A DNA stretch of 42,929 nt, from positions 1 to 42,929 of the forward strand of contig CAYNJS010000001.1 of assembly GCA_964397635.1 (NCBI GenBank). Reading direction: 5' to 3'. The DNA is from an uncultured Gammaproteobacteria bacterium. Lineage in GTDB: Bacteria; Patescibacteriota; Patescibacteriia; JAACEG01. The translations under genes and the position numbers were made by a program. Every line of letters begins with the position of its first letter. The first letter of the stretch is position 1. The notes beneath the pieces were generated by a model. That model made no database searches. It worked only from the letters and a program-made list of their open reading frames with translations, and had not been told where the DNA came from. This document shows positions 11,019 through 15,124 of this stretch, piece after piece.

Positions 11019-11768
11019 TTATTTTTTCCCTAAAAATATATTCAACACATCTTGAGCCGATTCTTCGCCGGTTGTTTTTGAGAACAGTTTTAATTTATCA
11101 AGGCGATGCAATAGCATTAAGACAGAAATAATTGAAGTACTAAAAGCCGCCTTTAGTATTGACTCTAGTATTAATCCCTGAGACGGAATAGCTGATAGGG
11201 TTATAAACAAAATTAATGATATAAAAAAAATTATTATCCAATTAAATATCGGCACTCTTTCCTGGTGGAGGGCAATCATTTTTTTCCTTATTACTTGCAG
11301 TCTTTGCAAGCTGGTTAAAATTTCACGCAAAGCCAGATTTTTCAAGCTCTTCAAGTTTTTATTTTTGGTAATATTTTCCGTTAAATTATTTATATTTGTC
11401 AGGGTGGTTGATTTGTTTACAAAGTGATAGTCCCAAGATTTGTTTTTAATTATTAGATTATAATGATCTTTTATGATTTTCTTTATATTTTTTTGAGGTA
11501 ATTTTCCCAGATGCCCAAACTGCCTGTATAGGCCGGACATTTCGCCGTCAAAAGCGGTTATGTTTTCCCTGATATTGCTATATCGTTTGCCCTGGCGAGC
11601 AATAAAAAACCCGGTAAAGGTTGCAAATAAAAAAGTGGAGATGGTTAAAAATATCTGAAATGAATCAATAGCATAAAACGGGAAAAAATAATATAAAGAA
11701 AATAATGCAAGAAAGATAAAAAATATTAGTATAAGCATAAAAAATATAAAATTAAGTTTATTCCCCAA
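11019..11768 (-). CDS. DUF4239-like four-TM membrane protein
   Basis: 249 aa. Two N-terminal TM helices, a helical soluble middle and two C-terminal TM helices. The start overlaps the upstream gene's end by 11 nt. Confidence 0.6.
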   Translation of the reverse strand: MGNKLNFIFFMLILIFFIFLALFSLYYFFPFYAIDSFQIFLTISTFLFATFTGFFIARQGKRYSNIRENITAFDGEMSGLYRQFGHLGKLPQKNIKKIIKDHYNLIIKNKSWDYHFVNKSTTLTNINNLTENITKNKNLKSLKNLALREILTSLQRLQVIRKKMIALHQERVPIFNWIIIFFISLILFITLSAIPSQGLILESILKAAFSTSIISVLMLLHRLDKLKLFSKTTGEESAQDVLNIFLGKK

Positions 11769-12579
11769 AAGAAAGGACCTCGTAATTTACTTTATGTTTT
11801 TTTACATTAAATTCTTTTTCTATTGATTCAACAACTTTTTCTTTATTATAAGGTTTACACGAGAAAATATCCATAAAAACCTCGTTTTCAAGGCCATGTG
11901 GCAGTACAAAGGTATGAATTGCAATATGAGAAAAATCAATAACAGCAAAACCGGTAATGCCGGGATTTTTTGGGCTTCCTTCCATTAAATTTGGTCCATG
12001 AAGAATATTCATTTTAAGGGATTTTATTGTTTTTGTGATAAATCCTTTTATAATGCGCTTACTTGTTATTTTATTTCGATCAGTTGTTTTAAAATCAAAG
12101 GTTATATGAAAAGCAGGAACAGTCATTTGATTGAAGCTCATATATTTATCCCCCAAAATAATTCCAACAAGATTTCGCAGTAAATTTCTTATATTTTCAA
12201 ATAATATAAATTGTTCTTTTTTGTCTTTACAGAAGGCTTCAAAGTGATAACTGAGTTCAGCAACCTTATTAAATAATCGCTGGTCTTTTTTTAAAGTTTT
12301 ATTTGTGATTTTATTGTTTTCTATTTTGTCGATAACAAATTGTATAATTTGTAAAAAGGAGTGCATTAATTGATGTTGGCTGTTGGGCAATAGCTTTGCC
12401 TTACCGGTTATTGCAACCATAATTTCCGATTCCATTTTAAGAGTTTTTTCAATGCCTTCATCAGAAGCGCTAATCTTATTGATTTTAGAACTAATATTGA
12501 TTGAGTTATTTTTTAATAAGTCAAATTGTTTTTTTAGCTCTTTATTTAGATTACCTATGTTTTTAAATCGATAGTTCAT
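11758..12579 (-). CDS. Pyruvoyl-dependent decarboxylase of the AdoMetDC (SpeH/SpeD) fold with an approximately 150-aa N-terminal helical extension
   Basis: 273 aa. The C-terminal part GITGFAVIDFSHIAIHTFVLPHGLENEVFMDIFSCKP aligns by eye to the class 1 AdoMetDC core ([30 protein letters not shown]). The self-cleavage Ser, the catalytic His and the Cys are all conserved. Confidence 0.7.
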   Translation of the reverse strand: MNYRFKNIGNLNKELKKQFDLLKNNSINISSKINKISASDEGIEKTLKMESEIMVAITGKAKLLPNSQHQLMHSFLQIIQFVIDKIENNKITNKTLKKDQRLFNKVAELSYHFEAFCKDKKEQFILFENIRNLLRNLVGIILGDKYMSFNQMTVPAFHITFDFKTTDRNKITSKRIIKGFITKTIKSLKMNILHGPNLMEGSPKNPGITGFAVIDFSHIAIHTFVLPHGLENEVFMDIFSCKPYNKEKVVESIEKEFNVKKHKVNYEVLSFGE

Positions 12580-12599
12580 AAAATTAAATTTATTTCTTT

Positions 12600-13697
12600 T
12601 TATTTTAATTTTTTAGCAAATACAAACACCATTCCGTCGTAGCCCACTGTTTCTTTATCGCTTCCTTCCAGTACTGATATTTCAATAATTTTAAAATCAT
12701 TTTCTTCTAAAAAAGAAGAAATATCATTTTCATCTATATTGGTTGCGGGCATTTGTTCTTCTTCAACTTGATACCAGTCAGCGCTACGAATAGCAGAGAG
12801 GGAAAGGAAACCCCCAGACTTAATGACATCTATTATGTTTTTCATTCCCTTTTCCCAGGTAGCGCGATCGGAAGTGGCAGACTCTATGGTAAAGTTTGAA
12901 GTTAGGAGGTCGATATTAGATTCCCTTCCTGAGGCAGTAACTGCCTCAAATTGTTCTTCATCATTAAGTTCGAGTCCTTCTTCAAAAACATTGCCGTGTA
13001 TTACTGAACTAACAACAGTACGAAGATGATTTTTCATTCCTTCTATTGTTTCGCTTTCCAGAAGTTTTAAAATATTTTGCGCGTGTGTTTTAGTTTGATT
13101 ATCGTCCGATTCAGCTTGTTTGTGAAGGATTGACATATATTTTTTATCTTCCTTAAGTGTTCGTTGCATAAGTGAAAAATAAGCATCCCAATTATAACTA
13201 TCTTCTTCTTGATTAAGCCATCTGTTTACCTCTTCTCTATTTTGTTCTAAAAATTCAGAATGAGTTATGCTTCCGGCTTCGAGAGATGTTAATATGTGTT
13301 GATAAATTGTTGGTCCGCCGTCAACATCTAATACTTTAATATTATTTTGAGGGTATGCTTCAAGTAAATTTCCGGCTACATTTTTTTGAAAATCAAAAAT
13401 TACAATATTTTCAACTGTCTCGTGCGGTAGATTTGTTTTTTCTACAATACTTTCAATATTTATGCGTCCATCGTTTTGGGAAATTTCATCTTGAACTTTC
13501 TTTATTGCCCAAGAAAATTTATCTATATCAATTTGCTCGGGATAATAATTTTTAATATAGTCTTGGGCTTCGAATTTTTCTTTAAATATAGCTGATTCTG
13601 CATTATCTTTTTCAAAACCATCTTTTTTGTCAGGGCTTGGAGTAGGCTCTGGTCGCGTTATTTCGTCAAAAAACCATTTTCCATATTGGTTGCTCAA
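12600..13697 (-). CDS. NNMT/PNMT/TEMT-family (PF01234-like) class I methyltransferase homologue
   Basis: 365 aa with an apparent TTG start. Three blocks align by eye to human NNMT: FEAQDYIKNYY versus FNPRDYLEKYY; VLDVDGGPTIYQHILTSLEAGSITHSEFLEQNREEVNRWL versus [40 protein letters not shown]; and IKSGGFLSLSA...GMVFVFAKKL versus LKPGGFLVIMD...GLFSLVARKL. Confidence 0.75.
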   Translation of the reverse strand: MSNQYGKWFFDEITRPEPTPSPDKKDGFEKDNAESAIFKEKFEAQDYIKNYYPEQIDIDKFSWAIKKVQDEISQNDGRINIESIVEKTNLPHETVENIVIFDFQKNVAGNLLEAYPQNNIKVLDVDGGPTIYQHILTSLEAGSITHSEFLEQNREEVNRWLNQEEDSYNWDAYFSLMQRTLKEDKKYMSILHKQAESDDNQTKTHAQNILKLLESETIEGMKNHLRTVVSSVIHGNVFEEGLELNDEEQFEAVTASGRESNIDLLTSNFTIESATSDRATWEKGMKNIIDVIKSGGFLSLSAIRSADWYQVEEEQMPATNIDENDISSFLEENDFKIIEISVLEGSDKETVGYDGMVFVFAKKLK

Positions 13698-13831: not shown

Positions 13832-14149
13832 TTATAAAATTTCTTTAACTTTATTTACCCATTCTTTTATTTCATTGAATCCAGTTTTTTTCTCATCTTC
13901 GTTGCTATTCATAATTTTTCTAGATGCTTCTTTTCTGTTTTCTAATAATGCTTGATAAATAGGGTTTTCTCCTAATATATTATCTAATTCTTCCATAGAA
14001 TCACTGGTATCTGCGTAGGCATAATCATTGTCACCGCTTTCAAGCGATTGGATTATATTTCCAATGTTTTCAAGTTCATCAATCATAAATTCTTTATCTT
14101 CAGCCGGTAAATTAATTTTTTCAATATTGGGCATTTCTTCAAAATTCAT
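13832..14149 (-). CDS. Hypothetical small, highly acidic protein
   Basis: 105 aa, D/E-rich, no TM segment and no recognisable motif. Lies 134 nt upstream of the methyltransferase-like gene on the same strand. Confidence 0.5.
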   Translation of the reverse strand: MNFEEMPNIEKINLPAEDKEFMIDELENIGNIIQSLESGDNDYAYADTSDSMEELDNILGENPIYQALLENRKEASRKIMNSNEDEKKTGFNEIKEWVNKVKEIL

Positions 14150-14915: not shown

Positions 14916-15124
14916 AAAAATCAAAATCAATGAATCGTTTTACCCAGCCCGCCGTGGTGGGCGGAGTTTTACGACAATATTTTTAAAATCCCCCTTGCTC
15001 CCCCTTTTTCAAAGGGGGAAACCGGATTAATTTTGTTTAAATTATATTTTATAGTCCCCTCCTTAGGAAAAGGAGGGTCAGGGTGGATTTTTCTTTTTTA
15101 ATTTTTCATTGCCATTTTGATTTT
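14916..15124. repeat. Mosaic repeat element, copy D (TIR-bounded, about 210 nt)
   Basis: Terminal inverted repeats AAAAATCAAAATCAATGAA (14916-14934) and TTCATTGCCATTTTGATTTT (15105-15124). Internal GC-rich hairpins: CCGCC..GGCGG (about 14950-14966), TCCCCCTTT-TTC-AAAGGGGGA (14999-15019), CCCTCCTT-N5-AAGGAGGG (15057-15077). Confidence 0.75.

Follow-up and report, generated by a model that had tools for sequence, protein, structure and literature searches.

Homologues of S-adenosylmethionine decarboxylase (AdoMetDC or SpeD) have neofunctionalised to pyruvoyl-dependent decarboxylases of L-arginine (SpeDA) and L-ornithine (SpeDC); they retain the class 1b AdoMetDC fold and its Ser/His/Cys set, have lost AdoMetDC hallmarks, are found in bacteria of the Candidate Phyla Radiation (CPR) and in DPANN archaea, and have spread by horizontal transfer (Li, Liang, Phillips & Michael 2023, PMC10407285). 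In all of these respects they appear to be matched by a gene that we describe here: gene 2 (positions 11758-12579, 273 aa, ATG start) of a three-gene block on the minus strand of contig CAYNJS010000001.1, from the genome assembly GCA_964397635.1 of an uncultured bacterium. The whole stretch of DNA that was analysed, 42,929 nucleotides long, is called the window below. Upstream of gene 2 lies gene 1 (12600-13697, 365 aa, TTG start), a relative of the animal amine N-methyltransferases NNMT, PNMT and INMT; downstream lies gene 3 (11019-11768, 249 aa, TTG start), which encodes a putative membrane protein. We consider it rather probable that genes 2 and 1 are a split version of a two-enzyme amine module with a distribution across both CPR bacteria and DPANN archaea. 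To decarboxylate first and N-methylate next is itself a familiar chemical logic: plant ornithine decarboxylase and putrescine N-methyltransferase likewise lead from an amino acid to an amine and on to an N-methyl amine. That resemblance is functional only; the plant routes employ pyridoxal phosphate-dependent decarboxylases and a putrescine N-methyltransferase derived from spermidine synthase (see PMC3725402), with folds that differ from those of the window pair. What are not familiar are the enzyme families used here, the clade of the decarboxylase and its N-terminal domain.

The decarboxylase domain of gene 2 occupies its C-terminal part (aa 156-273; 11758-12114, minus strand). The PF02675 profile matches residues 158-265 only, with 57.4 bits against a cutoff of 25 (E 2e-15), and a Foldseek search with the C-terminal portion of an AlphaFold2 (AF2) model aligns it with three Thermotoga maritima AdoMetDC structures, 1tmi, 1tlu and 1vr7 (E ~3e-6; TM 0.76-0.80). 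Self-processing and catalysis in the T. maritima enzyme need Ser63, His68 and Cys83 (PMC10407285). The aligned residues of gene 2, which lie within the motif IDFSHIAIHTF…FSCKP, are Ser217 (codon 11929-11931), His222 (codon 11914-11916) and Cys241 (codon 11857-11859), all read from the minus strand, and each of them is invariant in 15/15 members of the gene 2 family. The Ser/His/Cys set that a preliminary description of this DNA, made by eye, had ascribed to gene 2 is therefore present, in a domain that matches the SpeD fold. Ser217 is the predicted precursor of the pyruvoyl group, and self-cleavage is predicted to occur at the Phe216–Ser217 bond.

Gene 1 is a class I methyltransferase of the NNMT/PNMT/TEMT family, as judged by profile, by comparison with the sequences of solved structures and by predicted fold. 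It scores 106.3 bits against PF01234 (cutoff 25, E 2e-30), and human PNMT aligns with it (E 8e-16) over the same blocks in which the preliminary description had likened it to animal amine N-methyltransferases. The AF2 model (predicted local distance difference test score, pLDDT, 87; predicted TM score, pTM, 0.85) retrieves only NNMT and PNMT among its top 50 Foldseek matches in the PDB (E 1e-19 to 1e-17; TM ~0.8). Two of the checks that the preliminary description had proposed thus bear out its family assignments: both PF01234 and PF02675 are matched above their Pfam cutoffs, and the models are NNMT/PNMT-like for gene 1 and AdoMetDC-like for the C-terminal part of gene 2. Within its family, gene 1 is in an enlarged CPR subfamily that carries extra helical insertions. 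The statement that such enzymes are rare in bacteria holds roughly for this subfamily, which amounts to 62 clusters among 5.8 billion proteins; it is too broad for PF01234-type proteins in general, given that curated bacterial families (GntF, SCO2525) exist. Among curated bacterial models, gene 1 in fact matches that of GntF best (NCBIfam NF041360; E 3e-16), though at 59.2 bits it stays just below the equivalog cutoff of 60. GntF, an enzyme of the guanitoxin pathway, acts on a guanidine-bearing molecule, of which it methylates a primary amine; unlike the GntF setting, there is no guanitoxin gene cluster here.

The two families meet in single proteins. A HMMER search with the gene 2 domain against 1.84 billion representative sequences gave 412 matches, and the nearest relatives outside the gene 2 family include proteins in which PF02675 and PF01234 are combined (P0083, P0088, P0104 and P0134). 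A follow-up search raised the number of such fusions to at least 24 clusters, of which 20 are full length (365-377 aa); P0257 is a further example, and another, P0227, has been named GntF automatically. They occur as solitary genes in bacterial and archaeal contexts alike. The decarboxylase domain of the fusions is the closest outgroup of gene 2 (43% identity in the case of P0088), and the two share a signature in which Phe or Tyr precedes the Ser and HTF…FSCK comes after it. This signature is present in gene 2, in the decarboxylase of locus L014 (see below) and in 21/21 fusions examined (the D[F/Y]SH clade), with Glu at the fourth position after the His (His+4) in only 1/21 of these fusions. 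The window pair thus draws upon the same two families, with its decarboxylase in the same clade; it differs from the fusions in that the genes are separate, the decarboxylase has an additional N-terminal domain, and the methyltransferase is larger and divergent (25% identity, with insertions of ~50 aa). Literature searches found no experimental characterisation of a decarboxylase–NNMT-type pairing or fusion, for which the fusion proteins offer a ready single-polypeptide test object.

Two other fusion architectures were encountered. In P0290, P0282 and P0288 (289-301 aa), a DFSH-type decarboxylase is joined to a C-terminal domain of ~170 aa (VLVAGYGLG…TTVE…IGDIWPD) that by eye resembles a small Rossmann-type methyltransferase or aminopropyltransferase; no significant Pfam or PDB match was obtained for it, the best being a marginal one to PDB entry 3dtn (E 0.08). 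In P0162 and P0193 (300-302 aa), an AESH-type AdoMetDC-like domain follows an N-terminal multi-pass membrane domain of ~175 aa, another unreported arrangement of the SpeD family.

The second link between the families is adjacency. We read 38 methyltransferase loci from genome and metagenome collections, and 10 genomic contexts of gene 2 relatives. In 14 of the 38, an AdoMetDC-like open reading frame (ORF) lies within 1.7 kb of the gene 1 relative; these decarboxylases belong to two different clades, and the gene orders differ. In locus L014, from a member of the Falkowbacteria, a DFSH-type decarboxylase of 116 aa, 40% identical to gene 2, starts 30 nt past the methyltransferase gene and reads IDFSHVSIHTF…FSCKEYDKEKV. 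Most of the 14 linked decarboxylases instead read AESH…HTFP.R…YTCK, in a block that comprises the decarboxylase, a multi-pass membrane protein of ~195 aa, a small ORF, the methyltransferase and a histidine kinase. Recurrent adjacency and natural fusion, taken together, are in our view good evidence that both enzymes serve a single pathway. The corresponding hypothesis of the preliminary description, that an amino acid is decarboxylated to a primary amine which is then N-methylated and handled by the membrane protein, gains from this pattern in its enzymatic part, for which it is the best supported of the readings, and not in the part that concerns gene 3.

Other proteins recur at these loci. 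The ~195-aa membrane protein, cl3 (motifs TRPNRATW and LPTxKKxYxDPxSE; alignment A3), stands between decarboxylase and methyltransferase in many of them, namely L015-L019, L023, L035-L037, L041 and L042 (for example L019, 7118-7714), with the histidine kinase after the methyltransferase. Another group of loci (L014, at 2-676, L022, L024, L025, L029, L043, L045 and L047) encodes a conserved helical protein of ~270 aa (motif MQLYALDYF; alignment A4) directly upstream of the methyltransferase; this protein matches nothing in Pfam or the PDB and proved unrelated to the N-terminal domain of gene 2. Profile searches of Pfam and PDB gave nothing that would identify the neighbour proteins cl3 and cl4.

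What, then, does gene 2 decarboxylate? It misses the AdoMetDC equivalog model TIGR03330 (44.1 bits against a cutoff of 75.65). Its predicted cleavage site is Phe-Ser and its motif reads HTFVLPH, so that His+4 is not Glu, whereas Glu stands both before the Ser and at His+4 (HTWPE) in 5/5 SpeD references (a T. maritima sequence; chain 2iii, a solved structure; and three N-terminal domains assigned to SpeD by motif). Throughout the gene 2 family Phe precedes the Ser and Leu, Met or Thr occupies His+4; Glu is found at either position in 0/15. In human AdoMetDC, Glu247, four residues past His243, binds the ribose hydroxyls of AdoMet (PMC3686867). BLAST scores of the gene 2 domain average 40 bits to SpeDC-type (ornithine decarboxylase) domains versus 32 to SpeD domains, and the element FSC-x-[FY]-D is common to gene 2 and SpeDC. 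Because AdoMet-contacting residues are lost and the SpeDC branch is closer, we read gene 2 as representing a further, new clade among neofunctionalised SpeD proteins, one that would act on an amino acid rather than on AdoMet.

Gene 2 nonetheless differs in several features from the neofunctionalised types described. Of the four SpeDC diagnostic residues (Gln, Thr, Phe and Tyr; QLIETS…GHF…Y.D.FSC) it has one, the Phe of HTF, and the positions of Gln, Thr and Tyr read V/I, F and F. SpeDA is close to SpeD and lacks the conserved Pro of HTWPE; in gene 2 a Pro occurs, displaced by an insertion (HTFVLP), and SpeDA is itself without a sharp signature (PMC10407285). Unlike SpeDA and SpeDC, gene 2 has a Phe–Ser cleavage site in place of Glu–Ser or Thr–Ser, a four-residue insertion after HTF and a 155-aa helical N-terminal domain, and its partner is a methyltransferase and not speE, speY, hss or casdh. 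Automatic annotation probably misnames these proteins when it labels them, for example, ‘S-adenosylmethionine decarboxylase’ or ‘GntF’.

Residues of gene 1 speak to its cosubstrate. In INMT and NNMT the carboxylate of S-adenosylmethionine (SAM, the AdoMet of the decarboxylase literature) is held by Tyr20, Tyr25 and Tyr69, its ribose by Asp85 and Asn90, and its amino group is touched by Gly63 (PMC12467775). The alignment places Tyr47, Tyr52 and Tyr132 of gene 1 at the three Tyr positions, where they are invariant in the family, and Glu148 and Asn153 at those of the ribose ligands, where they are invariant or nearly so; the window copy itself keeps all five, and the ligand positions of the family align also with an animal NNMT-like sequence. 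Glu272, moreover, falls at the position of PNMT Glu185, and the acidic residue is conserved. Because the Tyr ligands and Glu272 are conserved, gene 1 fits the binding of intact SAM and the methylation of an amine, not the use of decarboxylated AdoMet (dcAdoMet), and judging from these residues it probably acts as an N-methyltransferase upon a small amine. Gene 1 has in common with animal NNMT, PNMT and INMT the fold (TM ~0.8), motif I (GxGPT.YQ), the Tyr ligands and the acid at PNMT Glu185; it differs from them in its prokaryotic host, in an identity of just 16-20%, in additional helical sequence at the N-terminus, in a ~30-aa insertion in the lid, and, in the window copy, in an Asp at the Gly63 equivalent.

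The same residues bear on a second hypothesis of the preliminary description: gene 2 would be a true AdoMetDC, and gene 1 an aminopropyl- or aminoalkyltransferase acting on dcAdoMet, with its Asp126 disfavouring the AdoMet carboxylate. Aminopropyltransferases of the class I methyltransferase fold do consume AdoMetDC products, and SpeD-SpeE pairs and fusions provide a classical precedent (PMC10407285). The second methyltransferase-linked clade of decarboxylases (AESH…HTFP) scores nearer to bona fide SpeD, and, as described above, certain DFSH-type decarboxylases carry a different fusion partner, an unannotated domain that looks Rossmann-like. Nevertheless, the gene 1 family keeps all three Tyr ligands of the SAM carboxylate, no spermidine-synthase family of Pfam matches gene 1, its top 50 structural matches include no aminopropyltransferase, and gene 2 has neither of the two Glu residues and scores below the TIGR03330 cutoff. 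Nor does the Asp offer the sign of an aminopropyltransferase that was seen in it. The Asp of spermidine synthases occupies the fourth position of the loop (GGGDG), a position other than that of Asp126; because Asp126 is private to this genome and replaces the SAM contact equivalent to Gly63, it lends the idea no support. We regard this hypothesis as very unlikely.

For the amine module we hypothesize the following course of events. Gene 2 would be made as a proenzyme and, as its conserved Ser/His/Cys set and fold suggest, would cleave itself at the Phe216–Ser217 bond to generate an N-terminal pyruvoyl group. The mature enzyme would then decarboxylate an amino acid, and not SAM, to a primary amine, in keeping with its loss of AdoMet contacts and its similarity to the SpeDC branch. 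Finally gene 1, with intact SAM, would methylate a nitrogen of that amine, as is suggested by its family, its SAM-carboxylate ligands and the acid at the PNMT Glu185 position. Our first guess at the substrate, by analogy, is a basic amino acid (arginine or ornithine, which would give agmatine or putrescine), because all characterised neofunctionalised SpeD homologues use one or the other and because GntF methylates a guanidino-amine. To a wider reading, taken as a whole, we give even chances: it would be a horizontally mobile pathway common to CPR bacteria and DPANN archaea, in which a SpeD-fold clade of new specificity (with Asp-Phe/Tyr–Ser cleavage) feeds an NNMT/PNMT-family enzyme; it would yield an N-methylated amine, for instance methylated agmatine, methylated putrescine or some other methylated biogenic amine; and it would take the form of a fusion, of adjacent genes and, in the window, of a decarboxylase with an extra regulatory or assembly domain.

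Several observations count against the amine module as we propose it. A PF01234 gene lies within ~6 kb of a gene 2 relative in 0/10 loci, and there is no decarboxylase near the closest relatives of gene 1 (77%, 62% and 52% identity). The particular combination seen here, of an extended decarboxylase with an adjacent large-type methyltransferase, turned up nowhere but in this window, and gene 1 shares just 25% identity with the fusions' methyltransferase domain, taking P0088 as representative. By BLAST score the AESH…HTFP.R decarboxylases are closer to bona fide SpeD, and for that clade a dcAdoMet-related role is conceivable. The equation of T. maritima Glu72 (the Glu of HTWPE) with human Glu247 is drawn from motif spacing only, and we infer from sequence both the substrate and the order of the two steps.

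The adjacency could be a coincidence: gene 2 might be a stand-alone, horizontally mobile arginine or ornithine decarboxylase of polyamine metabolism that happens to sit beside an unrelated methyltransferase and an unrelated membrane protein. The relatives of gene 2 are solitary among unrelated neighbours in 10/10 genomic contexts read, archaeal ones at 77% identity included, and the nearest gene 1 relatives have no decarboxylase nearby. In locus L006, from a member of the Magasanikbacteria (79% identity), the gene 2 homologue even lies between PilM and Fic, as it does in the window, and does so without gene 1 or gene 3. On the other side, both families are rare, with 16 clusters for gene 2 (all of ~270 aa) and 62 for gene 1 among the 5.8 billion proteins, yet at least 24 clusters unite the two in a fusion and 14/38 loci have them side by side; in the window itself they share a strand and are only 20 nt apart. 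Coincidence is, in our judgement, quite unlikely.

A further point against the module, at least as it stands in this genome, concerns the glycine-rich loop of gene 1, which was correctly reported in the preliminary description as DVDGGPT (residues 124-130); relatives read DVGGGPT. The substitution G126D (codon GAC, 13320-13322, minus strand) affects the first glycine of SAM-binding motif I, the equivalent of INMT/NNMT Gly63. Position 126 is Gly in 22/22 aligned relatives; across 34 locus copies with a readable motif it is Gly in 33 and Ala in one (L033), and the 77%-identical relative (L012) has the codon GGT. Together with N305S and G312E, G126D is one of three radical private changes at columns that are conserved in at least 91% of relatives, and none of the nine nearest relatives of gene 1 has deviations of this type. 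Going by these columns, gene 1 may be impaired in this genome, and G126D in particular, at a site where INMT and NNMT contact the SAM amino group, may weaken SAM binding. Taken to its conclusion, this would mean decay: G126D (with N305S and G312E) would have cost gene 1 its SAM binding, and the decarboxylase alone would function, releasing an amine that goes unmethylated here. We hold such decay to be rather unlikely: the ORF of gene 1 is intact, its 107 synonymous and 94 non-synonymous codon differences from the 77%-identical relative are unlike those of a free-drifting pseudogene, and AF2 models the motif I loop confidently. The substitutions could equally be adaptive or errors of assembly.

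Gene 3 matches PF14023 (Bestrophin-like, formerly DUF4239) with 52.3 bits against a cutoff of 32 (E 7e-14) over profile positions 31-218 of 232, which agrees with its earlier description as a DUF4239-like membrane protein. The arrangement of the block was also described accurately: three minus-strand genes, with a spacer of 20 nt between genes 1 and 2 (12580-12599, minus strand, from ORF coordinates) and an overlap of 11 nt between genes 2 and 3 (11758-11768), which applies only if gene 3 uses its TTG start; from an alternative in-frame ATG at 11738 there would be a 19-nt gap instead. A simple promoter/terminator scan, uninformative in AT-rich DNA, found no minus-strand terminator inside the three-gene block, which is compatible with an operon and no proof of one.

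Given this tight, same-strand position behind gene 2, gene 3 could be a dedicated channel or exporter of the methylated amine, and the block a three-gene pathway. Membrane proteins are indeed found beside the module elsewhere, cl3 (~195 aa) being one, a major facilitator superfamily (MFS) fragment after fusion P0262 a second and a TauE protein before P0004 a third; they are, however, unrelated to gene 3 and not homologous to each other. Furthermore, tblastn found a homologue of gene 3 in 0/48 related loci, no PF14023 gene lies near the gene 2 relatives in the 10 contexts read, and the fusion proteins are stand-alone genes. Conservation of the trio in other genomes, which the preliminary description had named as a check and whose absence it had counted as a refutation, is accordingly not what we see: gene 3 is missing from all of the loci, gene 2 is solitary in 10, and the nearest kin of gene 1 are without a decarboxylase. 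A dedicated exporter seems unlikely to us; only in this genome does gene 3 adjoin the pair, and it is at most a locally recruited channel.

The N-terminal extension of gene 2 (aa 1-155; 12115-12579, minus strand) is a conserved helical domain with the motif F.N.RNL.RN..GIL.GDKY. Five long helices make up these residues in the AF2 model, and the domain is kept in 15/15 members of the gene 2 family. Its earlier characterisation as an unrecognised extension of about 150 aa remains apt: residues 1-155 belong to no Pfam family and have no PDB sequence match, and Foldseek returned no confident match to the fold in the PDB or in BFVD (viral). We considered that the extension might be a degenerate second SpeD domain, by analogy with SpeD–SpeDC fusions (PMC10407285), and rejected this because it consists of five long helices and Foldseek matches the C-terminal domain only. 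Kinship with the neighbour proteins cl3 or cl4 was likewise rejected (hhalign probabilities <1%).

Extended decarboxylases of this kind cross domain boundaries. The nearest relatives of the genes of interest carry the label Candidatus Magasanikbacteria, a CPR lineage. Some contigs that bear gene 2 relatives are, however, archaeal-looking, with genes for thermosome, PTH2, histone, eIF-1A and eRF1, and one protein is named Pacearchaeota. Gene 2-type decarboxylases 77-82% identical occur on such contigs (L010/L011 6001-6810, L001 and L003), and in CPR bacteria too. Such identity implies, as far as sequence can, recent horizontal transfer of the extended decarboxylase between bacteria and archaea; because identity is up to 77% on archaeal contigs, gene 2 appears to move between CPR bacteria and DPANN archaea. 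Methyltransferase genes unrelated to gene 1 adjoin gene 2 homologues, or lie within ~2.5 kb of them, at L005 (2746-3420), the P0002 locus, L007 and L008. That of L005, 65 nt upstream of the gene 2 homologue, is an ICMT/PEMT-type membrane methyltransferase; other examples are of the Methyltransf_11/25, RrnaAD and N6_N4_Mtase types. Their proximity could be chance in small genomes that are rich in methyltransferases.

If our reading of genes 2 and 1 is correct, then the neofunctionalisation of AdoMetDC would extend past the arginine and ornithine decarboxylases, and the NNMT/PNMT family would acquire its first prokaryotic physiological role outside toxin biosynthesis. Given the very small metabolisms of CPR bacteria and DPANN archaea, a methylated-amine module that has been transferred repeatedly would point to a metabolite of importance to the episymbiotic lifestyle.

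The window has a G+C content of ~31%, and the genes around the trio are bacterial: RecG, RadA, ClpB, HtpX, Fic, LemA and a type IV pilus block. In a scan that took in roughly half of the ORFs ≥100 aa of the window, no partner genes of polyamine synthesis (speE and others) were seen, and Rfam gave no credible riboswitch or other RNA upstream of the genes that would serve as a clue to the substrate. An acidic protein of 105 aa encoded upstream (13832-14149) has no homologue in the related loci; we considered whether it might be kin to the small ORFs upstream of other methyltransferases and found it unrelated to them. Finally, the intergenic region between LemA and PilM contains a GC-rich double hairpin (14984-15092, minus strand) with a minimum free energy of -46 kcal/mol (z -3.3 versus shuffled sequences); its sub-threshold Rfam matches to plant miRNA families are spurious, and it perhaps serves as a terminator or has a regulatory role.

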